Positions 142 through 42,653 of a stretch of 64,000 nt of DNA are shown in pieces. Where the stretch lies: IMG/VR virus record IMGVR_UViG_3300042322_000140, positions 228-64,227 of that record; one strand, 5' to 3'. The position numbers were made by a program, and so were the translations under genes. Origin of the DNA: a virus. Taxonomy: Duplodnaviria; Heunggongvirae; Uroviricota; Caudoviricetes. The number at the start of each line of letters is the position of its first letter. The first letter of the stretch is position 1. The notes beneath the pieces were generated by a model, which was not told the DNA's origin, did no database searches, and saw only the letters and a program-made list of their open reading frames with translations.

Positions 142-441
142 ATGACAGAAGAAGAATCATTAGCACAAAGTTATTTATTAGAAGAAGATGACGAAAATGA
201 CAACTATAGCCCATATTGTCCAGTTTGTACTGGTTGTGGAGAGTCTGGTTGTTGTAGTCCTACTTATTGCGATCCGGACAATATTAATTGTCAATACCCA
301 AAGACGTATACCGAGGACCTTAAATTAGGTTATCGTACATTTGAAAGATTTTGGGATTTATTAGAAGAGAATCAATGGTTTGGTAAAAAAGAAGAATTTA
401 TGAAAATCTATGATGAACAATTAGATATTAGGTTTAAATAA
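142..441 (+). CDS. Hypothetical phage protein with Cys cluster (possible metal binding)
   Basis: 99-aa ORF, A-rich start context, CPVCTGCGESGCC..C cluster; 1 nt from next ORF. Confidence 0.6.
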   Translation: MTEEESLAQSYLLEEDDENDNYSPYCPVCTGCGESGCCSPTYCDPDNINCQYPKTYTEDLKLGYRTFERFWDLLEENQWFGKKEEFMKIYDEQLDIRFK

Positions 442-442
442 T

Positions 443-856
443 ATGGAAGATAATAAAATAATAGTTCATAGCCAAGTTACTTGTCTAGAATGTAAAGAGG
501 TTTTGATTAGTCAACATAGGCATGATTTTAAAACATGTAGTTGCCCAAATGAAACTATGATTGATGGTGGTAGTGCTTATGTAAGATTTGGTGGAAAAGA
601 TTTATCAAAAGTTGAAACTTTTACAGTATTTGATACTGACGACTTTAAATTTGTTCGTAGATATGCTTCTCGTGGTGGTCGTGGAGTTGATGGTAGAGAG
701 CCCTTGACTTGGACTAAGTTATGTGATATGAATGATGAGTGGTTACAAGCTGTATTAATCTATTATCCTGAAGGTACAGATAACGACCATTTAAAACTTA
801 TAAGAAAAGAAATTGAATACCGTAAAGAAACTAGACACAATGGAAAAAACGTATAA
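443..856 (+). CDS. Conserved phage Zn-binding hypothetical protein
   Basis: CxxC...HRHDFxxCxC...IDGG pattern recognisable from many phage proteins. Confidence 0.65.
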   Translation: MEDNKIIVHSQVTCLECKEVLISQHRHDFKTCSCPNETMIDGGSAYVRFGGKDLSKVETFTVFDTDDFKFVRRYASRGGRGVDGREPLTWTKLCDMNDEWLQAVLIYYPEGTDNDHLKLIRKEIEYRKETRHNGKNV

Positions 857-1292
857 AAAAGTAGGTAAAAGATATGTTGAGATAGAGCAAAGGGTATCTT
901 TAAATCAAGAGCTTGTATTAGGTTGTGCCTTTAGATATGCACTAGGTAGAGCTACTTATGTAGTTGGGGCCGTTTGTGAAGAACTTGTAAGGCTTGAGCC
1001 AATTCTAGGTGATAATTTTAAATCTAGGATAGCTAAAGAAATTCAAGAGTATCAAGACGAACATGGTAAGGCCGGTTGGGATTTTGATAATGATGAATGG
1101 AACTATGTAAAATGGTTTTATACCCCTAGCAGAAGATTTATCTTAGAAGCTAACTTTTACAAAACTGATGATTGGGAAGAAGTTGAGGCTTTTAGGAGTG
1201 ATGAGTTAACAGAAGATGGAGAGCACATATACTACCCAGTAGGTAATAAAAATGGTTACTACCATACAGTAAGAAACGTAAGAAATAAATAA
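840..1292 (+). CDS. Hypothetical phage protein (CAFRYALGR motif)
   Basis: ORF track 813..1292; second ATG at 840 reduces overlap with the upstream gene; CAFRYALGRxTY motif seen in phage hypotheticals. Confidence 0.6.
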   Translation: MEKTYKKVGKRYVEIEQRVSLNQELVLGCAFRYALGRATYVVGAVCEELVRLEPILGDNFKSRIAKEIQEYQDEHGKAGWDFDNDEWNYVKWFYTPSRRFILEANFYKTDDWEEVEAFRSDELTEDGEHIYYPVGNKNGYYHTVRNVRNK

Positions 1293-2188
1293 TGACAAAC
1301 ATATCCTTTTTTTATTACCCGGCAGATGTAACAATACCTAAACCTTTAGGTAAAGTAAACTTTAAGCAATTTTTACGAGCTAACAAGAACCCAAGTTCTG
1401 ATATTAGTGGTATTTTTGATTTAATTTCTGCTGCTACTATTGTGGGGGATATGGGGCTAAAACATGAGCTTAAGTCAAAACTCTATTACTTTACACCTTG
1501 TGTACAAACAGATGGTAATGGTCGTTGTTATGCAAATATAACTGGGTTTACTGGGCTAATGGTTCTAGACTTTGATAAGTTACCGGATGCACCAGCCTTT
1601 AAGCAGTTTTTGTTTGATGCTGTGCCTAGTATAGTTGCAGCTTATTTGTCACCTAGTAAAAAAGGATGTAAGTTTATTGTTAAAATACCTGTGTGTAAAA
1701 CTACAGACGAGTTCAAAAGTTACTTCTATGGTATGGCATATTTTTTAGATAAGTATGAAGGCTTTGACCCCTCTACCCAAAACTGTATCTTACCTTTGTA
1801 CTTGTCAATTGACCCTGATTTATTGTATAGAGATAATCCAGAGACTTGGGCTAAAAGAGGTACTAAGATAGATGAATTTAAGCCTTATGTTGGAGAGATA
1901 GAAGTCTTAGAAAATGTTAGCGAAAAAGACAAGAATAAGGTTAAAACTATGTTAACAAGGTCTATGGAAAAAATTGTAGACTCTGGCCACTATATTGTGA
2001 GATCAACAGCTTTATGTGCTGGAGGTTATGTAGCAAGTGGTTATTTAACAAGAGAAGAGGCAGAAGACTTGCTTTTCGGTCTAATAGAGGACAACAGTTA
2101 CTTACAAAAAAATGTAAGAGGTTACAAAATGACCACAAAAGAAATGATAACAAAGGGTATGACAGGCCCATTATATTTAAAAGAGTAA
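1292..2188 (+). CDS. BT4734-like/VirE N-terminal (AEP primase-polymerase-like) protein with C-terminal helical PriCT-like region
   Basis: YFTP..., TGLMVLDFD, AYLSPSKKGCKFIV, FDPSTQN...YLSIDPD match BT4734-like N-terminal domain motifs. Confidence 0.7.
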   Translation: MTNISFFYYPADVTIPKPLGKVNFKQFLRANKNPSSDISGIFDLISAATIVGDMGLKHELKSKLYYFTPCVQTDGNGRCYANITGFTGLMVLDFDKLPDAPAFKQFLFDAVPSIVAAYLSPSKKGCKFIVKIPVCKTTDEFKSYFYGMAYFLDKYEGFDPSTQNCILPLYLSIDPDLLYRDNPETWAKRGTKIDEFKPYVGEIEVLENVSEKDKNKVKTMLTRSMEKIVDSGHYIVRSTALCAGGYVASGYLTREEAEDLLFGLIEDNSYLQKNVRGYKMTTKEMITKGMTGPLYLKE

Positions 2189-32554: not shown

Positions 32555-33487
32555 TTAAATATCTGACTCATTGAGAGTGAACTTTAAAGCTATGCTATAT
32601 CTACTATCTTTGTCGTATGTAATTCTGTTTAAGAACCAATCCCCTACCATTCTTTCAAGAAGTGCTTTTCCTTTAAAGCTTACAGCATTTGTGTTTACAA
32701 ACTTATCTATTTGATTTTTGTCCTGTAATAAAAATGGAATGTTATTAGTATTGCTCTTTACTCTATTGTAGAAGTAGTCGTAGTTCCATTTAAAACCATC
32801 TGGGTTAGTTATCATAATATCCTGTGTACCGTTTGTGTTAGTTTTAGGATAGTTTCTTGAATTAGCCGTTTTTGTTTTCTCCGGTATTAGGTTAATATTT
32901 CCTGAACATACAATATTATTGTATATCATAGACTTATTAAATGTTAATCCTATACTAGTAGCATAATCATACTCATTGTGGTATCTTTTTGCCTCTGTCC
33001 ATATTTGGACATTGTTCAATGTCTTAGTTACAAATTCTTCTTTTATTGGGTACTCTACTGTAAATGGTTGTTTTTTACCGTAGAATACTTGGTAAGATTT
33101 GTTTGTTAATAAGTGAGACCATAGACCAAATTCTGAGTAGTCTGGGGTTACATTCATACCTGTTTGGAAGTACTTATTATGATTTATATAATAGTTTGGC
33201 TCAAATCCATAAAAACTCATCCAGGAACCTAATACTGGAGAGTAAGCAATTGTCCAAGATACATCCTCAAAATCTGTTGGGTTTACCTCTACTGGTACTA
33301 CTATATTAGTTATTATTGGATCCACTACATCCAGACAGTTGCAGTGTGCGTTCCCGTTTTGTGTTAATACAAGTGTGCACCCTTCAGGGCACTGAATATC
33401 TGTTAGTACAGTTATCTTTGTGCATTCCTGAAATGGAAACGCTTGTATTGGTGTTAATTCATATCCTTCTGGGCAAGTACAATTCAT
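32555..33487 (-). CDS. C-terminal part of crAss-like tail muzzle/stabilisation protein as a separate gene
   Basis: VSWTIAYSP...WMSFYGFEPNYY and GDWF motifs typical of the muzzle C-terminus; N-terminal CPxG(Y) hairpins. Confidence 0.6.
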   Translation of the reverse strand: MNCTCPEGYELTPIQAFPFQECTKITVLTDIQCPEGCTLVLTQNGNAHCNCLDVVDPIITNIVVPVEVNPTDFEDVSWTIAYSPVLGSWMSFYGFEPNYYINHNKYFQTGMNVTPDYSEFGLWSHLLTNKSYQVFYGKKQPFTVEYPIKEEFVTKTLNNVQIWTEAKRYHNEYDYATSIGLTFNKSMIYNNIVCSGNINLIPEKTKTANSRNYPKTNTNGTQDIMITNPDGFKWNYDYFYNRVKSNTNNIPFLLQDKNQIDKFVNTNAVSFKGKALLERMVGDWFLNRITYDKDSRYSIALKFTLNESDI

Positions 33488-33498
33488 TTTCTATATTT

Positions 33499-35406
33499 TT
33501 ATGTTGTTACTGCTGTAAAACTTAATGGTACCATACTTCCAGATGATATATCTGGTGTAAAGGTATGTGTGCCTGCTGCTAGTGGTGTGCCTAATGCTGT
33601 AAGTGTAATTGTTTGTACACCGGTTCCTGCAAATACTCCTGTGCCTCTAAATGTTACTCCATTCGCACTTGCAATAATATCATATGAACCTACACTTAAA
33701 CCTGTTCCTAAACTTGTTACAGTTACTGTAAGAGATTTTGTTACACCGGTTGTTATTGCTACTCCTGCTGACATAGTTCCTGTTTGTGCCCCCCAAATTA
33801 GTGCTGAAGCAATAGTACTCTTACCTCCAGTTGATGGTTGTAGTACTCTTGGTGCTGCTGATGGATTACATGGATTAATTTCAAGGATCTTATCTCCAAT
33901 AATACCTTGATATACACGAGTTGTCCCTACAAAAAATTCTAATCCTACTACACCTGAGTGTTGGTCATAATATTGATTTGGGGCAGTCCCTAATACATTT
34001 GTTCCTCTTAACCTAATTTTTAAAGTCCCTACCCCAGAAGGTAATCCATTACCTATTGCTAATATTTCAGCAGCACTATATGTTATAGAAGATTGTCTTG
34101 CACCTGCTGCTGCCATATGTGTTGAGGGATCATCCCAATTAGCTATTGGTATAGGGCCACCGCCAGCATTATTCATATTTGCTATACCTACTGGTATACC
34201 GTTTGTCATAAATTCAAACCTTGCTCTGTTACAAGTATGTCCTGATGCAGAACTTAGTGCCCATTGTGGGTTTAGTGTGCCTCCAGGAACTGTGACAACT
34301 CCTATTAAACTACCGTCTAATCTTTGAAAAGTAGGAGTTGATAAAGCTCCAGCTGTTCTTGTCATATTTATTATATTAGCAGAACTTGTGACTGTTATTC
34401 CAAGACTTAATAGTCCTGCAGAATGTGTAGTAACAAAAGTTGCAGCTGTTTGTGTTAAGTCTACATTAAACTCTATAAAGTAGATATGTGATTCATCATA
34501 TCTAACTTCTGCTGATCCATCTGTCCCTGATAAAGTTATTGAGTGGTTAGTTGTTGCATTTGTATACTGCGAGCCTATTCCATCGTAAACTACTCTAGCT
34601 GTAAGTGCTGCTAAACATGTAGTTACTGTTGCTCCTACATTCACTACGTAGTTAAGGTTAGTTGTACAACCGTTTGGTGCAGTTGCTTGTATGTGGTATG
34701 TTACTACTCCTGCTACTGATGCTGTCAATGTGTTTGATATTGTTGTACCTGAACCAGCTATTGCACCAGTTATTGTGCCAGGAGATGTTACAGTCCATGT
34801 AAATGTTGTCCCTGGTAATCCACTGCTAATAGCTATATTTACTGTAGCTCCACTTGCTATTGCTTGTGGTGAGCTAGGTGTTACTATTATATCTGGGACT
34901 GTATTTACTGTGACTATTACTTCAACTGGCTGCCCTTGGCATTGGCTAGATATTTCAAAAGGTGTTATAGTATAAGTTACTGTACCTAATCCTGTTAATG
35001 TTTGTGCTATTACGCTACTATTACCTGATGAAGCCCCCATTACTCCTGATTGAACAGCGGTCCATGTGTAAGCAATCCCAGATTCTGTACTTGCTAATGC
35101 TATATTTGTTGCAGATCCACTACAAATAGTTTGCGGACTTGCAAATACGTCTGCTGTACATACACAAGTTGCTGCTACAATTTCTATAAGTGTACATGTG
35201 TCAAGATTTGGGTCATACGTATATCCATCTGGGCATAAGTCTAGGCCCTGTGTAATTATTTGACAATACCCACCAACTAACTCATACCCATCTGGACAGG
35301 TTGTTATTGTGCATGACGGGTATATTGAGTCTATGTATTCACAAAAATATTCTCCTCCTATTTGTACTAGAGTTCTTCCCTCTAAGCATGTGCATGATTC
35401 TGCCAT
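33499..35406 (-). CDS. Tail-tip adhesin-like protein with CPxGY hairpins and two PKD-like Ig domains
   Basis: CPDGY x2; QTICSG..YTWT..VTYTITP repeats; C-terminal NGVTFRGTG..ITLTALGTP..GTHTFT domain of Flavobacteriaceae surface-protein type. Confidence 0.6.
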   Translation of the reverse strand: MAESCTCLEGRTLVQIGGEYFCEYIDSIYPSCTITTCPDGYELVGGYCQIITQGLDLCPDGYTYDPNLDTCTLIEIVAATCVCTADVFASPQTICSGSATNIALASTESGIAYTWTAVQSGVMGASSGNSSVIAQTLTGLGTVTYTITPFEISSQCQGQPVEVIVTVNTVPDIIVTPSSPQAIASGATVNIAISSGLPGTTFTWTVTSPGTITGAIAGSGTTISNTLTASVAGVVTYHIQATAPNGCTTNLNYVVNVGATVTTCLAALTARVVYDGIGSQYTNATTNHSITLSGTDGSAEVRYDESHIYFIEFNVDLTQTAATFVTTHSAGLLSLGITVTSSANIINMTRTAGALSTPTFQRLDGSLIGVVTVPGGTLNPQWALSSASGHTCNRARFEFMTNGIPVGIANMNNAGGGPIPIANWDDPSTHMAAAGARQSSITYSAAEILAIGNGLPSGVGTLKIRLRGTNVLGTAPNQYYDQHSGVVGLEFFVGTTRVYQGIIGDKILEINPCNPSAAPRVLQPSTGGKSTIASALIWGAQTGTMSAGVAITTGVTKSLTVTVTSLGTGLSVGSYDIIASANGVTFRGTGVFAGTGVQTITLTALGTPLAAGTHTFTPDISSGSMVPLSFTAVTT

Positions 35407-35417
35407 TTTTTATTCTT

Positions 35418-38400
35418 TTAAAAATTTCTTATTGCTCTTACTCTACTTCCATTTCCTCCTTGACCGTTTGGTTGTTGTGGTCTTAGAGACCCTGCTGGTG
35501 TAGTATTGTAGTTATAAAATTGTATATTATAAGCTAAAGTGCTAGATGGAACTCTGCTTGAAGTCCAATAGTGAGATCTTCTTGTATCTCCATCTGTTGC
35601 AAAGTTTCCTATTACTGCCATATTTTGCCAAACTTTATATAATTCATCTGCACTTGGTAAATACCAGTCCGTATAACCCCCACCTGTATAGTCTACACAA
35701 AGTTGTGCTGCGTAGTCTGTTGAAGTTGTAGATGTTGTGTAGCCAAAAGTTGAAAATAACAAATTTGTATTTGCTAATCCTGAACCAAAAGTGGTAGGTA
35801 GAGGAGATGGTAATGGGACTGTTGGAGAAAATGTTGTCATACCTAAGCCTGCTGTTAATCCTGGCACTCCTATTGTTGGTAAATCAAATTCTGTGACTAC
35901 TAATCCATGGCATCCTGAACTATCTAGGTGAAAGATAATTCCTCCTTGATGACTATCTCCAATTGCTAAGGTACATACTTCTGCTAATACTTGAAAGCTT
36001 ACAGTAGCTGTGTCACAATTTGTTAGGTTTAAATTTTCACATACTTGGTATGTTAAACTATGTGCTCCTATTGGTACTCCTACAGAAACAACTACATCAT
36101 TTCCTGATAGTGTAATTCCAGTGTCGGTTGATGATACAAAACTTACTGTTACATTTGCAGGTATTACTGCTGCTCCATTTAAGGTGTCATTTGTAAGTAC
36201 ATTTGTAAATGTTGTACCTCCTATTGCATCTGTTATATTTATTCCTGTTTCATCATTTGCTACTATTGGTGCACTATTTACTACTGCAGTTGCTACTGCA
36301 GTATCACAGTTTGTTGGATTAGCTATCTCACAAATTCCGTATGTTAATGTGTACGATCCTGGAGGTGTTCCAGCAGCTACCAATACGCTATTTCCAACAA
36401 GTGTTACGCCAGGATTGGTAGAAGATACAAAACTAGTTGTTACTTGTGCTCCTGTAACTGGTAATCCATTAAGAGTATCGTTTACTAATACATTTGGTAC
36501 TGATGTTCCTCCAGCTGCTACCGTTAATGGTACTCCTGTATTATCATTTGCTACTATTGGCACACTGTTTACTAATACTGAAACTGTTCCTATATCACAA
36601 TTTGATGGGTTTGCTACTTCACATATTCTATATGTTAATATGTATGATCCTGGAAGTGTCCCTGGAGCTACTACAACACTATTTCCAACAAGTGTTACAC
36701 CAGGATTGGTAGAAGACACAAAACTAGTTGTTACTTGTCCTGATGATATTGCTACTCCATTTAGTGTGTCGTTTATCAATACATTTGCAAATGCTGTTCC
36801 ACCTGATATACTAGTTAGTGGTGTTCCTATATCGTCATTTGCTAAAATTACTGCATTATTAACTAATATATTGACATTAGCAGTATCACAGTTTGTTGGA
36901 TTAGCTATCTCACATATTCTATATGTTAACGTGTACAATCCAGACGGTGTTCCTGGAGCTACTACAACGCTATTTCCAACAAGTGTTACGCCAGGATTGG
37001 TAGAAGACACAATTGTTGTGTTTACTTGTGTAGAAACTACAGGTAACCCCTCTAATGTGTCATTTACTAGAACATTTGCTACAGATGTTCCACCAGATAT
37101 TGAAACTACTGGTGTACCTGTATCATTTGTTGCAATTATTTCTGGTAATGGACAATTTGCTGGTACTCTAACTAATTTGTCGCACATAGAAGTTTCTATA
37201 TTGTATGTATATCCAGGTGGACAATTTGTAGTTGTTTCTGGGTCACAGCATTTTGTTACGTTGTAAACAAATCCTTGTCCTTCAATATACTCTATACATG
37301 GGTTTTTAGGGATATAATCTTTCTTAGTTATAAAAACTCTTCTGTATCTACTATCCCACCCCATTGTAAGCCCAAGGCCATTATATGGATTGTCTATATC
37401 TACATTTGGTAGGTAGTTTAACATTTTGAATGGTAGGTGTTCTTTAAACCAGTTTCTCATTCCACTAGCTTTGTCTCCTGCCATAGCAGATATTTCTATC
37501 ATACCTTCGCCATTTGATGGTACCATCAATACTTGCCCTCTTTTTGCATCTGCGAAAAAGTGTCCAAATTCATTTGAAACAAAAGTGGAATTTTGCGTTC
37601 CTCCATAGCCTAACCTAGTGTTATGGAAAGATGTAGATCTTCTTTGGAAGAAGGAGTTTCCTCCAAGTAATGACATTACTGGACTAGATCCATCATCTAC
37701 TTTGCTATCTACTTTGTTATATAATACAGATGTATTTGCAAATCTAGCTAAAATAGCTTGACCTTCAATATCAATTATATCTTTTAATTTTCCATAATTT
37801 GAAGGAAACTCAAAAATATCCAATGGTCTATATATTAACCATGGATCGTATAAAGAGTTCTCTGTACTATCTGGTAAGCTAGCTATTATACCATTTGGCA
37901 TATCTTGAGTACACTCATTAAATGATCTTTCGTAAGTATCTGTAAGTGTTCTTCTTCTAGTCAAAGATATTTGTTTTGAATACTCTGAGTTATATAAGAA
38001 CACATTAGGCTCTCTTATAGATACTTTTTCTTCTTGTGTCCAATCTCCTAAATCTCCTACTAGTGGATAAAACTTTCTATTTGATTCTTTTCCTGCATAT
38101 CTGTAATTAGTATTTATTCTAGTTTCAGATAAAAAATTAGTTATACCATAGTAGTATAAATAGAATTTAGAGGGGCTTGTAATATAATTTCCTGAAGATG
38201 CAAGATTATCAAATATGTAGTCGCTATCAATGTCTGGAAAATTTGAGCCAGCATTAGAAAAATCTTTATTTTGCTCATAGCTGCAATAGAATTGAGGATT
38301 TCTGCCTATGTTACTATAAAAAAAGTAATTGTAAGGTGTTAAATCTGCTTGTTTCATTGCAGTAACTAAAAATAGTGGCATTTTTCTTTTTAGGGTGTGC

Positions 38401-41400
38401 CTTGAGATATAAGTATCCCCACCAAATATTGGTAAACATCCTGAAGTTGCATTTCTAAGATTTCCTACATATCCTGTAGATAGCCATTTTATAGAGCTTA
38501 TAGTTCCATATTGAGTAGGTAAATAATTTTTTATTGCAACATATGGTGATGCTATATTTCTTACTATCTCTGGGCTTCTCCCTGCTCCACCAAATCCGGA
38601 TGCTGATTGATAAGTAATACTTGCATCCGCACCTTTATCATATATTCTATAATTATTAATACTAGCAGTAGGATAAGTAATAGGCATATCTCCAAAGGAT
38701 AGCAATACAGATCTTTCTCTATCAATATTATTAACATTTAATCTTTCTCCGGTTACTTCATTTGTTGTAACAAGTCTTCCGTCATTCAAGTATTTTGCAA
38801 TATGCAGTCCTCTTAATTTATTCCCATTTAACCCAGGATCTAGCATGTAGTTATAGTAACCATCTGCATAATAATAGTATGCAAAATTCTGTGGGCTACC
38901 AAAATCTCTAAATATTTTTAACCATTGGTATCTATATTCAGCATGTTTATAGATTAATGCTTCTGCTGTGCCAAATATAGCAACGATTCCTGCTGATATG
39001 AATGCTGGAAGTCCTATACTAGTACCTACAACAAATCCACCCATAAACCAAACTTGTGCATTAGATGTAATCTCAGCTACTTTTATTAGTATTTCTCCTG
39101 CTACTTCTATTGTAGCTAAAAAGTTTGCAAGACTTCTTGCTGCAGGTGATAAGATTACCCATTTAGGGTGTCCCTGGACTTCATCAAAATGACCTCTTGA
39201 GTTTCCAAACATGTAACCTTGAATACTAAGCTCTGAGGGTAGTCCTTGTCTATAGTAGTCTGTCTCTGGTGAATGAAATGTGTAATTTCTATTTGATACT
39301 CCAAAAGTTACTCCATTTTCAGTACTTTGATCTTCTTCTAGGTTTAATAAGTCATTTTGGTAACTATTAAATGGGTAGTTTGAATAGTATACTGTTTTTG
39401 TGTGTTCTTTGTATTTTCTCATATCATACAAAAGACCAGAAGCTACTACTCCTCTATCTAAAGAGATGTCTCCTCTGAATACTTCATATCCTGATATTTT
39501 ACTTCTATCACTTTGTGTCAACAATCCATTAACTACGGCTATGTCTAAAAATGCACTTATTAAGTTCTCATCTATTGTTATACCCAATGGAAATATCAAA
39601 CTACTACCAAATGGGCTTTGTTGTTTATTTGACATAAACGGTGCTAAGTCATTGTCTGGGAATTTGAAATGTCTTATATTAGCACAAGTAAAGTTAGCAT
39701 TATTATTTAAAATATAACTACCATTAGCTACAGCATCTACAAATATATCCTCAAATTTTGTTCTTATATCTATTGGTATTAAGTTCTGAGGTATTACTAA
39801 ATCTCTAGAGTCATAAAGTTCTGGATTATCTGGGTATGTTTCTTCACTCTCCCAATAAGCAAACTCTCCTTTTCTATATGGTACAGCATTGCAGCTTTGT
39901 ACTACTGGCTGTTGAAAAGTACATGTCGCTGTAGCTATTATCTTTTTGTCAAATCTAATAGAATCCCAAGTTACATCTACTCTACTGTACTCTATATCTC
40001 TTTGAGTTACAGTATAACAGCTAGTTGTTGGCATGGATATGTACACTAATGCATTATTAGTATTAAAAAATGAAATATCTGTATCAATTGTTCTGCTTAC
40101 TATTGGGCAATCTACTACTACATAATATTTTTTGCTTGTCAGCCACCCATTTGTTATAATTGGTGCTACTACTCCTAATGAATCTGTTATCTTTAAGCCA
40201 TTTGGTGCTATACTTGAATCTTTTTCTAGAAGAAATGTCATTCCATCTGCTACTGTAATTATCTTTGAATAAATAGCTGTTGTGTCTGAGCAACTTTTGA
40301 ATATAGAAACTCTTAGCTGTGTAACTGGACCTAATGTGTCTTGTGGTGGTGTTGCCTTATCTTTACTTATATCAAGTAAAAATCTAGTTTTAGTTCCAAT
40401 TTCTCCCTTGAACCAAAGTGCTCCTTTATGTATTTTATTAGTAAAGTTTCCAGATATTCCACCAATATGAGGTATTTTAGAAGTATATAAATTATTTACT
40501 GTTGAGCTTATGTAGTAGTTATTAAAAGATGCCGCATTATAATTATCATTAGCGTTTGCATAAGTAGCTATTGCTACAGGATAATTACAATCTTCATTTT
40601 CAAAATCAGAGTCTCTTAATCTAACTGGGACTTCTTGGTTATTCCAAGTATCTTGTACTAATGTTCCTGGAGTAAATCCTAATGGATTAGTTGGATCTTG
40701 TTGTGGTGTACCTGTTGTTGAGTTTGTCTTATATATAGTGCAGGTTTTTGGCATTTTTATCCTTAGATACTCAGAGGGGAATACTTTTTCTATCTTTGTA
40801 GCCGCTTCATTTACAATATCTCCAACTACTACCTCTGTTTCTAATGTAGGTACATCACACTCTAACCCATCAAAAATATCTGTTTCACAACCTACTGCAG
40901 TGTAATTTCCATTTATTGCTGTACATATATCAGTTCCTTCGAATGCAACCGGGCAATCTGCTTTATGTTCTTCTATATACTGTGCTAATCCTACATATTC
41001 TGTTTCTTCTATATCTATAGAAAACATGTCTTGAGTTACATTATATACCCCTTCTACAATACAAGTTTTTGTTAAACTTTCTGTTACTGGTACTGTTTGT
41101 ATATCTACTCCTTCACATATAGAACCTGGTTCAGAAAAAGCGGTGTTATAAAATTGCCATTTTTGATTTCTGTTTACTGAATTACATGATTGTATGTTTT
41201 TTATTATCGAGTCTACATCATCATTTATACCATTGCCACTTTCATCTACTACTAGATCCTTTTCTCCTGGTATAGCAAATCTGCTTATTAATGGAAATAA
41301 AGCTGTTTCGTATCCTCCATCTAGAAAAAATCTTATAGATAATGGTACAACTTCGTCTCTATTATAGCCTAAAAACTTAGAGCTTAAGACTCCATTTTCA

Positions 41401-42653
41401 TATAAGCTTTCAGGTGCCATGTGTGTTTGCCATTGTACAAACTCTCCTAATAAATTTATTACTGGCTGTAAGTTTATTTCTTTTTTTTGTGTAATTCCAT
41501 ATTGGAATAGTATATTATTAGAAGCTGTAAGTCCTTCTGCTTTTTCTATATTTAACTGATCTATTAATAGTTTATCAAAACTTGTAGCTACTTTATTTTG
41601 TTCCGTAGTATAAACTACAGTATTATCATTAATTGTGTGTAGACCTTCTATAAAATACCTAGATGCTCCCTCTATATCTGCTGTTTGTATTACAGCAACT
41701 TTGTAGTGAGAATAAGTCTTATCTAGGTCACTTACTTCTAGTCTTATGGCTAAATTTGTTCTACTTGCTAAGTCTTTTTGTTCTAGTATCCTATTGTTTT
41801 TATCAAATATTGATATTGGATTTGTTATAGAATAGTATGGTGATATTTCATTACCTGCTGCATCTGAATAAGCTATTAAAAACTCATATACTCCCATTTG
41901 TAACCTGCCTCCTAGTTCTATAGTAGCTGGTTCAATCTTAGGTATATTAAAAAGTTTAAATATTCTTAACTCGTTGTAATTGATACAAGGTGTAGTTACA
42001 TTTACATCACAAGGTACATTTTGATCGTAGTATTTCCCATTATAAAGATCTGTGATATTTATGTGTCTTGGTGGATTATTATTATCTGAAAAATATATAT
42101 TTTTACCACATTTTTCATTTTTGATAACTATCTTTTTTATTGGGTAGTTTATATCAAAGTTAAATCCTGATCCAGGAACAAAAGGCATACAAAGATTAGT
42201 GTTAACGTCTAAGTATCCATCTGCATCTGTCAGGAGTGTGGTGTATGTTTGTAGTGGTAATTGTGTTAGTGTCTCTAATGGCTCCGCAAGTTGATTTGCT
42301 TTGTTACAGTTATCACAGTCTACTAATATATCTGATACATCATTTGTATTTTGATTATCCTCTATAACGCCAAATTCCCCTACATGTGTAGTGGGATTTA
42401 CTAAGAAAAAGAATGTAGAGTTTGAGTCAATATCATTTTCAAACCCTATAACTTTAAACCCTAGTTTAAATTTAGAAGCTAGTATATTAGACTTTTCGTT
42501 TGTTAAATTTAAGCTATTACCAGATTCGTTTTCTACGTTTGCATTATATGCATGTGTATATTGAACGTCTGTTAATTGCGAAGGGTGGGTGTCTTTTTCC
42601 ATACCCGTCTTAGCAAAACTTAAATTTACTTTCTTATTCTGTTGTTGTGCCAT
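35418..42653 (-). CDS. crAss-like tail muzzle/stabilisation protein (N-terminal and central part) fused to four Ig-like repeats and a DUF1566-like C-terminal domain
   Basis: YFSDNNNPPRHINI, GYNRDEVVP, IRHFKFPDN, FHSPE, FGGDTYISR, WFKEHLPF, GWDSRYRRVFITKKDY; then repeats; C-terminal GGIIF..DWYLPSADEL..YWTSS..VRAIRNF. Confidence 0.7.
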   Translation of the reverse strand: MAQQQNKKVNLSFAKTGMEKDTHPSQLTDVQYTHAYNANVENESGNSLNLTNEKSNILASKFKLGFKVIGFENDIDSNSTFFFLVNPTTHVGEFGVIEDNQNTNDVSDILVDCDNCNKANQLAEPLETLTQLPLQTYTTLLTDADGYLDVNTNLCMPFVPGSGFNFDINYPIKKIVIKNEKCGKNIYFSDNNNPPRHINITDLYNGKYYDQNVPCDVNVTTPCINYNELRIFKLFNIPKIEPATIELGGRLQMGVYEFLIAYSDAAGNEISPYYSITNPISIFDKNNRILEQKDLASRTNLAIRLEVSDLDKTYSHYKVAVIQTADIEGASRYFIEGLHTINDNTVVYTTEQNKVATSFDKLLIDQLNIEKAEGLTASNNILFQYGITQKKEINLQPVINLLGEFVQWQTHMAPESLYENGVLSSKFLGYNRDEVVPLSIRFFLDGGYETALFPLISRFAIPGEKDLVVDESGNGINDDVDSIIKNIQSCNSVNRNQKWQFYNTAFSEPGSICEGVDIQTVPVTESLTKTCIVEGVYNVTQDMFSIDIEETEYVGLAQYIEEHKADCPVAFEGTDICTAINGNYTAVGCETDIFDGLECDVPTLETEVVVGDIVNEAATKIEKVFPSEYLRIKMPKTCTIYKTNSTTGTPQQDPTNPLGFTPGTLVQDTWNNQEVPVRLRDSDFENEDCNYPVAIATYANANDNYNAASFNNYYISSTVNNLYTSKIPHIGGISGNFTNKIHKGALWFKGEIGTKTRFLLDISKDKATPPQDTLGPVTQLRVSIFKSCSDTTAIYSKIITVADGMTFLLEKDSSIAPNGLKITDSLGVVAPIITNGWLTSKKYYVVVDCPIVSRTIDTDISFFNTNNALVYISMPTTSCYTVTQRDIEYSRVDVTWDSIRFDKKIIATATCTFQQPVVQSCNAVPYRKGEFAYWESEETYPDNPELYDSRDLVIPQNLIPIDIRTKFEDIFVDAVANGSYILNNNANFTCANIRHFKFPDNDLAPFMSNKQQSPFGSSLIFPLGITIDENLISAFLDIAVVNGLLTQSDRSKISGYEVFRGDISLDRGVVASGLLYDMRKYKEHTKTVYYSNYPFNSYQNDLLNLEEDQSTENGVTFGVSNRNYTFHSPETDYYRQGLPSELSIQGYMFGNSRGHFDEVQGHPKWVILSPAARSLANFLATIEVAGEILIKVAEITSNAQVWFMGGFVVGTSIGLPAFISAGIVAIFGTAEALIYKHAEYRYQWLKIFRDFGSPQNFAYYYYADGYYNYMLDPGLNGNKLRGLHIAKYLNDGRLVTTNEVTGERLNVNNIDRERSVLLSFGDMPITYPTASINNYRIYDKGADASITYQSASGFGGAGRSPEIVRNIASPYVAIKNYLPTQYGTISSIKWLSTGYVGNLRNATSGCLPIFGGDTYISRHTLKRKMPLFLVTAMKQADLTPYNYFFYSNIGRNPQFYCSYEQNKDFSNAGSNFPDIDSDYIFDNLASSGNYITSPSKFYLYYYGITNFLSETRINTNYRYAGKESNRKFYPLVGDLGDWTQEEKVSIREPNVFLYNSEYSKQISLTRRRTLTDTYERSFNECTQDMPNGIIASLPDSTENSLYDPWLIYRPLDIFEFPSNYGKLKDIIDIEGQAILARFANTSVLYNKVDSKVDDGSSPVMSLLGGNSFFQRRSTSFHNTRLGYGGTQNSTFVSNEFGHFFADAKRGQVLMVPSNGEGMIEISAMAGDKASGMRNWFKEHLPFKMLNYLPNVDIDNPYNGLGLTMGWDSRYRRVFITKKDYIPKNPCIEYIEGQGFVYNVTKCCDPETTTNCPPGYTYNIETSMCDKLVRVPANCPLPEIIATNDTGTPVVSISGGTSVANVLVNDTLEGLPVVSTQVNTTIVSSTNPGVTLVGNSVVVAPGTPSGLYTLTYRICEIANPTNCDTANVNILVNNAVILANDDIGTPLTSISGGTAFANVLINDTLNGVAISSGQVTTSFVSSTNPGVTLVGNSVVVAPGTLPGSYILTYRICEVANPSNCDIGTVSVLVNSVPIVANDNTGVPLTVAAGGTSVPNVLVNDTLNGLPVTGAQVTTSFVSSTNPGVTLVGNSVLVAAGTPPGSYTLTYGICEIANPTNCDTAVATAVVNSAPIVANDETGINITDAIGGTTFTNVLTNDTLNGAAVIPANVTVSFVSSTDTGITLSGNDVVVSVGVPIGAHSLTYQVCENLNLTNCDTATVSFQVLAEVCTLAIGDSHQGGIIFHLDSSGCHGLVVTEFDLPTIGVPGLTAGLGMTTFSPTVPLPSPLPTTFGSGLANTNLLFSTFGYTTSTTSTDYAAQLCVDYTGGGYTDWYLPSADELYKVWQNMAVIGNFATDGDTRRSHYWTSSRVPSSTLAYNIQFYNYNTTPAGSLRPQQPNGQGGNGSRVRAIRNF
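35977..37140 (-). repeat. Four tandem 291-bp (97-aa) Ig-like repeats
   Basis: Matching blocks at 36100, 36391, 36682, 36973 (period 291); protein consensus ANDxxGxP..GGT..NVLxNDTLNG..SSTNPGVTL..YTLTYxICExxNPxNCD. Confidence 0.9.

Follow-up and report, generated by a model that had tools for sequence, protein, structure and literature searches.

How can a tail-tip protein that is usually made as one polypeptide be encoded by three consecutive genes? This question is raised by a locus in a 64-kb window, the whole stretch of DNA analysed here (positions 228 to 64,227 of IMG/VR virus record IMGVR_UViG_3300042322_000140; record 128 kb, estimated ~90% complete), to which all coordinates refer. The gene concerned encodes the muzzle (nozzle) of a crass-related phage, and its sequence is distributed over three open reading frames (ORFs) on the minus strand. 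The locus probably specifies a natural three-chain version of the crass-type muzzle, split at a hairpin hot-spot that carries swappable adhesin cargo. The ORFs, their spacers and the two conserved muzzle blocks are as follows (aa, amino acids; nt, nucleotides).

35418-42653, minus strand: ORF1 (P0001), 2411 aa
35407-35417, minus strand: 11-nt spacer between ORF1 and ORF2 (from the sequence)
33499-35406, minus strand: ORF2 (P0002), 635 aa
33488-33498, minus strand: 11-nt spacer between ORF2 and ORF3 (from the sequence)
32555-33487, minus strand: ORF3 (P0003), 310 aa
37314-42653, minus strand: muzzle N-core, ORF1 residues 1-1780, ending in GWDSRYRRVFITKKDY (ORF1 residues 1765-1780, 37314-37361); identified by PHROG 37948, phi17:2 gp043 and crAss_MUZ
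32555-33301, minus strand: muzzle C-core, ORF3 residues 63-310 plus stop; identified by PHROG 37948, phi17:2 gp043 and the gp44 fold

Both ends of the muzzle protein

Profile and pairwise alignments show that the two outer ORFs belong to one protein. In PHROG 37948, a family of virion structural proteins (2289 positions), ORF1 residues 7-1785 align with profile positions 5-1739 (E=0) and ORF3 residues 64-307 with positions 2050-2286 (E 1.6e-61). A first-pass annotation of the DNA, which had named three ORFs of the lengths found here, had proposed aligning both halves to a single-chain homologue. Against gp043 of Cellulophaga phage phi17:2, such a single chain, ORF1 is 43% identical and ORF3 residues 63-306 are 45% identical to residues 2049-2285 (E 3e-63), the two ORFs falling on opposite parts of the homologue; no similarity to gp043 was found for ORF2. 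It was thereby borne out that muzzle-like sequence ends after GWDSRYRRVFITKKDY and resumes in the 310-aa ORF. At the level of Pfam, crAss_MUZ (PF25731) is matched marginally in ORF1 (27.1 bits, cut-off 27; 37.4 bits when the adjacent stretch is included), at ~37761-38159 and profile positions 904-1066, and is absent from the whole-protein hmmscan listing. Sequence searches of the PDB with ORF1, ORF2 and ORF3 and a blastn search of the phage collection with the N-core gave no match.

The fold of ORF3 agrees with these alignments. Its predicted model (mean pLDDT 74; all structure models are of monomers) matches the muzzle gp44 of phicrAss001 with Z 11.1-11.4, residues 74..310 corresponding to 1166..1371, and the next unrelated structural match has Z 6.2. 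For a single-chain homologue, L039, the model matches gp44 with Z 17.6 (323..1099 against 1027..1371, 320 aligned residues), and its inserted vWA domain matches vWA folds (Z ~17). The C-terminal sandwich of the ORF3 model also resembles the nozzle ends of SU10, T7, Pa223 and Pan3 (Z 4.3-5.1). According to its description, gp44 is made up of a ring-joining domain and a seven-bladed propeller like that of the T7 nozzle, interrupted by IG and crass domains (PMC10172136); from this layout and the gp44 alignment, the break sits in the C-terminal propeller/sandwich part. ORF3 is the missing muzzle C-terminus, equivalent to the last 206 residues of gp44, and from its model it would supply the last propeller strands and the C-terminal sandwich. 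Flanking ORFs match PHROG families labelled virion structural, one of them also with a transglycosylase match, and the genomic setting is therefore like that of gp44, a virion structural module. This setting is also what speaks for a hexamer at the tail tip that would be joined to the last ring protein.

The N-core further holds a Gly/Ala-rich hydrophobic stretch (..AGEILIKVAEITSNAQVWFMGGFVVGTSIGLPAFISAGIVAIFGTAEAL..; ~38950-39130, ORF1 ~1175-1235), which is conserved and also occurs in phi17:2 gp043. It looks membrane-active or buried.

The split state in the window and in relatives

The three ORFs lie in three different reading frames, each starts with ATG and ends with TAA, and an in-frame stop is found two codons 5' of the ATG of ORF2 (TAA) and of ORF3 (TAG). 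Since the frames differ, in-frame stops precede the ATGs and the stops are TAA, neither readthrough nor a simple frameshift can fuse the ORFs. It could be supposed that expression joins the pieces, through reassigned stop codons, programmed frameshifts or protein splicing, the more so as TAG or TGA is frequently reassigned in crass-like phages (PMC12386605). This proposal is very improbable, however, in view of the same stops and frames, the lack of an intein-like block, and the state of single-chain relatives, in which the junction is a hairpin of 23-40 aa.

The full HMMER scan with ORF3 gave 731 relatives; the census covers 151 classified homologues, together with proteins from fetched loci. 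Single chains make up 138 of the 151, in line with the earlier statement that the muzzle is usually one polypeptide. A short linker is the commonest state (97/151; mostly 23-40 aa, up to 75, and nearly all cysteine-free), 41 homologues have an in-frame insert, with at least six cysteines in 25/151 and few in 16/151, and 13/151 are split. A comparison of the interval across relatives had been suggested as a check, and it places short-linker, insert and split states all at one site. This hot-spot is a short beta-hairpin between ...ITKKDYIP and ...FEDVSWT, with ~245 residues left to the C-terminus, and corresponds to about residue 1160 of phicrAss001 gp44.

A separate C-fragment of 304-353 aa occurs in nine IMG/VR architectures (L003, L004, L005/6, L007/8, L016, L028, L032, L033 and L034), and metagenome contig L018 has a further one. 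An N-part that is 93% identical (P0181) is recorded on 20 contigs. Split essential structural genes on metagenome contigs are often frameshift errors, and an assembly or sequencing artefact, or the decaying muzzle gene of a defective phage, has to be weighed for this reason. Yet many samples, assembled independently, show the same breaks, each piece with its own ATG and stop; no two of the three ORFs share a frame, and conserved domains are encoded in the 4.7 kb of inserted DNA. The ratio of nonsynonymous to synonymous substitution rates (dN/dS) is 0.05-0.08 in the C-core, 0.14-0.34 in the ORF3 leader that precedes it and 0.33-0.5 in the ORF2 module, the first of these values again speaking against decay. 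An artefactual or degenerate origin is hardly credible at all. Because the layout is recurrent, the leader cysteines are invariant and dN/dS is low, artefact, pseudogene and recoding are rejected; the split is genuine and under selection.

On a tree of the C-core, obtained by a quick maximum-likelihood search (LG+G4) and liable to be blurred by recombination, the four junction states need 37 changes, and the split state alone needs at least six, five of which are forced by well-supported branches. With 37 state changes, either remodelling of the site has been frequent or cassettes pass from allele to allele.

Stalks, cargo and cassette boundaries

What lies between the two muzzle blocks is composed of cysteine hairpins and cargo domains, which are arranged in the window as follows.

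37140-37313, minus strand: outgoing cysteine stalk of ORF1, residues 1781-1838 (sequence; homologous stalks in relatives)
35976-37139, minus strand: cargo 1a, four 97-aa immunoglobulin (Ig)/cadherin-like repeats of ORF1 (four copies at 291-nt spacing)
35418-35975, minus strand: cargo 1b, distal domain resembling DUF1566/Lcl_C, and the ORF1 stop codon, TAA (sub-threshold PF07603)
35311-35406, minus strand: ORF2 leader, residues 1-32, a returning-type CxC..C..C module (MAESCTCLEGRTLVQIGGEYFC..C) (pattern and position)
35194-35298, minus strand: ORF2 outgoing hairpins B (CPDGYELVGGYC) and C (CPDGYTYDPNLDTC) (homology to L003 and L016)
34642-35157, minus strand: cargo 2a, two PKD-like domains of ORF2 (PF19406 PKD_5)
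33499-34641, minus strand: cargo 2b, ~380-aa distal part of ORF2, then TAA stop (homologues in relatives)
33302-33487, minus strand: ORF3 leader, residues 1-62, two returning cysteine hairpins (alignment, model)

This arrangement agrees with the first-pass annotation, which had seen Ig repeats, DUF1566 and a whole 635-aa PKD gene between the muzzle halves (the DUF1566 match being sub-threshold) and cysteine motifs at every junction; all the motifs that it quoted are found in the sequence. Two hairpin types can be told apart, an outgoing type, CPxGYx[YL]..C, and a returning type, CxC..C, which always opens the downstream gene. Cysteine-rich inserts have a common order of hairpin 0 (C..EGxGF..C), from one up to seven outgoing hairpins (C-P-x-G-[YF]-x-[YL]-x(4-8)-C), cargo, and returning units (CxC..C or CPxGC..CxC). 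The ORF1 stalk consists of a hairpin 0 of the disulfide type (C-IEYIEGQGFVYNVTK-C), followed by hairpin A (CPPGYTYNIETSMC), and homologous stalks are present in L016, L028, P0219 and P0221. All downstream genes, that is 13 C-fragments and two middle genes, open with M-x(1-3)-CxC. In pattern and placement, the ORF2 leader is the same as the leaders of C-fragments and of a 736-aa protein of L028. The ORF3 leader, which forms two beta-hairpins in the model, is invariant at C3, C5, C22, C33, C37, C49, C51, P34, G45 and N46 among ten split C-fragments of 41-95% identity. In single-chain P0009, which is 56% identical to ORF3 with the leader included, a returning unit (CTCPEGYTQVTIDDIVYC) stands in frame where split genes begin M-N-C-T-C-P-E-G-Y.

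The number of invariant leader cysteines is odd, being seven in most C-fragments and nine in L016, L018, L028, L033 and P0013, and one cysteine of the ORF3 leader may be unpaired or bonded to another chain. Pairing of this odd cysteine with a C-terminal cysteine of the upstream chain was considered and dropped; the latter belongs to the cargo (INPC in PKD-type cargo, the closing cysteine of vWA) and is absent from ORF1 and ORF2.

A 20-nt segment is repeated four times with 75-80% identity (33456-33475, 35216-35235, 35279-35298 and 37204-37223), the copies encoding the CP[DEP]GY[ET][YL] cores of four hairpins. As specialised recombination sites these repeats were rejected, being too short and too diverged; they amount to microhomology at best.

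P0009 (2433 aa, JGI/ENA) bears the name 'phosphoribosyl-AMP cyclohydrolase' in one source. Its PRA-CH match is sub-threshold (17 bits against 27, residues 737-789), and the name is probably a misannotation. A metagenome scan aimed at the P0009 contig did not recover it, and a scan for P0010 gave nothing.

The cargo itself resembles adhesins. With Flavobacterium adhesins of type IX secretion and gliding motility that have DUF11, Big_9 and Cadherin_4/5 domains, the four Ig repeats share up to 63% identity, a likeness that points to a host in the Flavobacteriia and to capture of host-like domains. Cargo 1b shows a resemblance only, as PF07603 reaches 21.9-23.7 bits against a cut-off of 34.9; NF046116 gives a weak match. 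The PKD_5 family (PF19406) is matched by two stretches of ORF2 (E 4.3e-13, 49.4 bits against a cut-off of 25), and cargo 2b, for which no match was found in Pfam, NCBIfam or Atlas, has homologues of 48-53% identity in L016, L018 and L028. Across relatives, single chains carry vWA, a DUF5122 propeller or unassigned cargo of ~215-305 aa at the site, and split forms carry two PKD_5 domains with various ends, Fib_succ_major, DUF11 with DUF285, two PKD domains with vWA, or four Ig repeats with the DUF1566-like domain. Such different binding-type domains at the same site are what the earlier suggestion of swappable cassettes called for.

How the middle gene arose can be read from close relatives. 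In L003-L005 and L016, the ORF2 module (hairpins B/C, two PKD domains and distal part) is in one frame with the muzzle N-part, to which hairpins B/C are fused. DNA homology between the window and L003 is 87% up to 37267, is lost for 1.96 kb and returns at 35301 (79% nt identity) at the TCPDGYELV codons, and in L003 the equivalents of 37267 and 35301 are 41 bp apart. Similarly, hairpin A (CPSGFSYNQTTSLC) is joined directly to hairpins B/C by a linker (EKYVDEILKTVAPSC) in L016, and the window interrupts this order with four Ig repeats, the DUF1566-like domain, a stop, 11 nt and the leader M-AES-CTC..C. An independent three-part locus is found in L028, whose C-fragment is 59% identical overall and 66% in the core; its N-part carries hairpin A plus 190 aa of unrelated cargo, and the other two parts are a 736-aa ORF2 homologue (MSCYC..C) and the C-fragment. 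Comparison of the window, L016 and L028 indicates that the inserted unit comprises cargo, stop, start and CxC module and is of the same kind as the main break. By these comparisons, the PKD arm, covalent in close relatives, appears as a separate 635-aa protein here and in L028.

Stalk A and cargo 1 are 69-76% identical to those of P0219 and P0221, whose N-cores are 54-55% identical to that of the window, and the closest N-core (L003, 87%) is without cargo 1. Between lineages, then, conservation is higher in the cassette than in the core, which supports cassette exchange. The first-pass annotation had taken the hairpins for exchange boundaries, and the DNA homology blocks shared with the nearest relative do stop and restart at hairpin-coding modules. 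A search of IMG/VR for a two-gene allele bearing cargo 1 found none.

Two observations concern neighbouring genes in relatives. In L028 (1877-2269), which apart from the window is the only locus in three parts, a nucleotidyltransferase-like ORF of 124-130 aa lies between the N-part, whose end it overlaps by 30 nt, and the ORF2 homologue (NTP_transf_2 at 21.1 bits, cut-off 21; Polbeta and MTPAP-like just under their cut-offs). In csAssE-Sib (L002:1-5729), two genes of the TnpB / IS605 type are located <=6 kb upstream of the single-chain muzzle gene.

Proposed reassembly of the chains and known systems compared

In the lineage of the window, the frame is broken after the cargo, leaving the N-part to end as a free adhesin arm, and a tightly spaced downstream gene, beginning at a returning CxC module, supplies the C-core. 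The outgoing stalk is interrupted after hairpin A, ahead of hairpins B/C, by another unit made of cargo, stop, start and CxC. In the proposed explanation, the 11-nt spacers would give coupled, equimolar synthesis. ORF3 would rejoin the N-part by fold complementation, contributing the last propeller strands and the C-terminal beta-sandwich, much as one chain completes the other in the split A1002 nozzle (Pseudomonas phage). Each returning CxC module would dock on the outgoing hairpin preceding its break, so that ORF2 would be daisy-chained between the N-part and ORF3. A chain break of this kind would allow linear arms with a free distal end at an internal loop, and would let stop-bearing cassettes swap by recombination in conserved hairpin or junction sequences. 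As homologues of the 635-aa protein are covalently fused to the muzzle in relatives, we infer that it is present in the virion.

That the hairpins act as connectors is plausible, because every new N-terminus opens with a CxC module, and the matching module counts, one outgoing hairpin to one returning module and two to two, in the window and L028 alike, argue for it. A more specific version, in which CxC modules are plug-and-socket connectors binding outgoing CPxGY hairpins, perhaps via the odd seventh cysteine, can be advanced only tentatively. If true, any number of adhesin-bearing chains could be daisy-chained onto one nozzle loop, and crass-like phages would have a general, recombination-friendly route to swap multi-arm receptor-binding tips with the essential fold untouched.

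Several points weigh against this explanation as a whole or in part. No match to crAss_MUZ_C (PF25729) was found anywhere in the 128-kb record at E<=1, ORF3 included, though the gp44 fold match extends over this region, and the C-core tree is open to the blurring mentioned above. L033 is split though its last cargo is a vWA domain with ends close together, which indicates that a free distal end is not the sole driver of splitting. With the returning-module HMM (hidden Markov model), the leader of the L028 736-aa protein scores 11.5 bits and that of ORF2 in the window 2 bits, not significant. Outgoing and returning cysteine counts across single-chain forms are weakly correlated, with rho 0.42 (p 0.02, kinship ignored), and lengths not significantly. 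Moreover, the C-fragment is integral to the muzzle fold (gp44 1166-1371), so that fold complementation alone could reassemble the muzzle.

The last three points also favour another account, in which the split and the hot-spot are real, the cysteine hairpins are mere rigid spacers, ORF3 rejoins by its fold, and the 635-aa fibre is either unattached or bound at some other place, such as the tail hub or ring proteins. It would fit, too, with the highly conserved ORF3 residues 93-138 being poorly modelled alone, as expected of a surface that requires a partner. Nevertheless, ORF2 retains hairpins B/C, which are part of the muzzle chain in relatives, the CxC..C pattern of C-fragments was gained at the start of ORF2-type genes in two diverged phages, and the seven leader cysteines are invariant over 41-95% identity, seemingly beyond the needs of a spacer. 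Hairpins as spacers are for these reasons rather unlikely. Of the earlier interpretation, the single-site split of the muzzle, the 310-aa ORF as its missing C-terminus and the swappable cassettes stand; the connector role of the hairpins is not among the supported parts.

With the three-chain muzzle as the preferred reading, the tail tip of this marine crass-related phage probably doubles as a modular host-binding platform. Host recognition by crass-like phages is poorly known, and the muzzle has so far been treated as a conserved gatekeeper. The present data assign to the muzzle itself a display site that evolves fast and resembles host adhesins. They also show that, in many environmental lineages, a nozzle-type protein can be divided between two or three genes although it is essential. 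The hot-spot is a concrete place to seek host-range determinants of uncultured Bacteroidota phages. The split muzzle would also be a case, found in nature, of a virion machine assembled by protein complementation, and the small cysteine-hairpin modules may be of use as stalks or connectors.

Among known systems, the hairpins are like those of cEGF (PF12662): the pattern C-P-x-G-[YF]-x-[LY]...C is found repeatedly, cEGF positions 5-20 are weakly matched (14-24 bits in eight proteins, the best 23.7 against a gathering cut-off of 26.6, so that the family cut-off is never reached), and the units resemble the second half of epidermal growth factor (EGF) domains. In the model, they are beta-hairpins of the disulfide type. 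Unlike EGF, the window units are single hairpins and not six-cysteine domains.

The muzzle gp44 of phicrAss001 (PDB 7QOK/7QOL; Bayfield et al. 2023, PMC10172136) is of the same family by fold and marginally by Pfam, and its C-terminal 330 residues align with the pre-junction part plus the C-core. The length of the gp44 family varies through insertions reported in the crass and IG2 domains only (PMC10172136), whereas the window's variable site is the C-terminal hairpin. Unlike the window muzzle, gp44 is one chain of ~1371 residues without cysteine-hairpin stalks, adhesin cargo or gene fission. Full-length homologues of 43-45% identity, namely phi17:2 gp043 and phi4:1 gp42 (Lightbulbvirus, PHROG 37948) and the 'muzzle protein' of csAssE-Sib, define both ends and the insertion site for the window. 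Of these, phi17:2 gp043 is a single chain with an in-frame insert of ~310 aa and no cysteine at the same site, and the csAssE-Sib muzzle is a single chain with only a ~37-aa linker between the conserved blocks.

No split form is described in those of the searched papers that mention the crass muzzle protein, the nearest analogue being the A1002 nozzle, which is divided into the nozzle-rope gp39 and the nozzle-base gp42, the second chain completing the propeller and platform sandwich with partial blades by strand addition (PMC13730344, Nov 2026). Both are podovirus nozzles of more than one polypeptide, in which the final partial blades and C-terminal sandwich lie beyond the break. A1002 belongs to another phage group and has a much smaller protein in two pieces, whereas the window has three pieces and cysteine-hairpin stalks; one A1002 piece bears a fibre-carrying extension, a rope that binds separate fibre dimers, whereas the adhesin domains of the window are fused to the pieces. 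In a C-fragment homologue from a Logan assembly (P0020, 962 aa), a DUF5122 propeller and cysteine hairpins make up a 727-aa N-terminal extension; provided that the gene is called in full, its cargo would be carried by the C-piece, like that of the A1002 nozzle-rope protein. Complementation is solved for A1002, and by analogy we infer it for the window, where three cistrons show a break of the A1002 type, ORF3 covering gp44 1166-1371.

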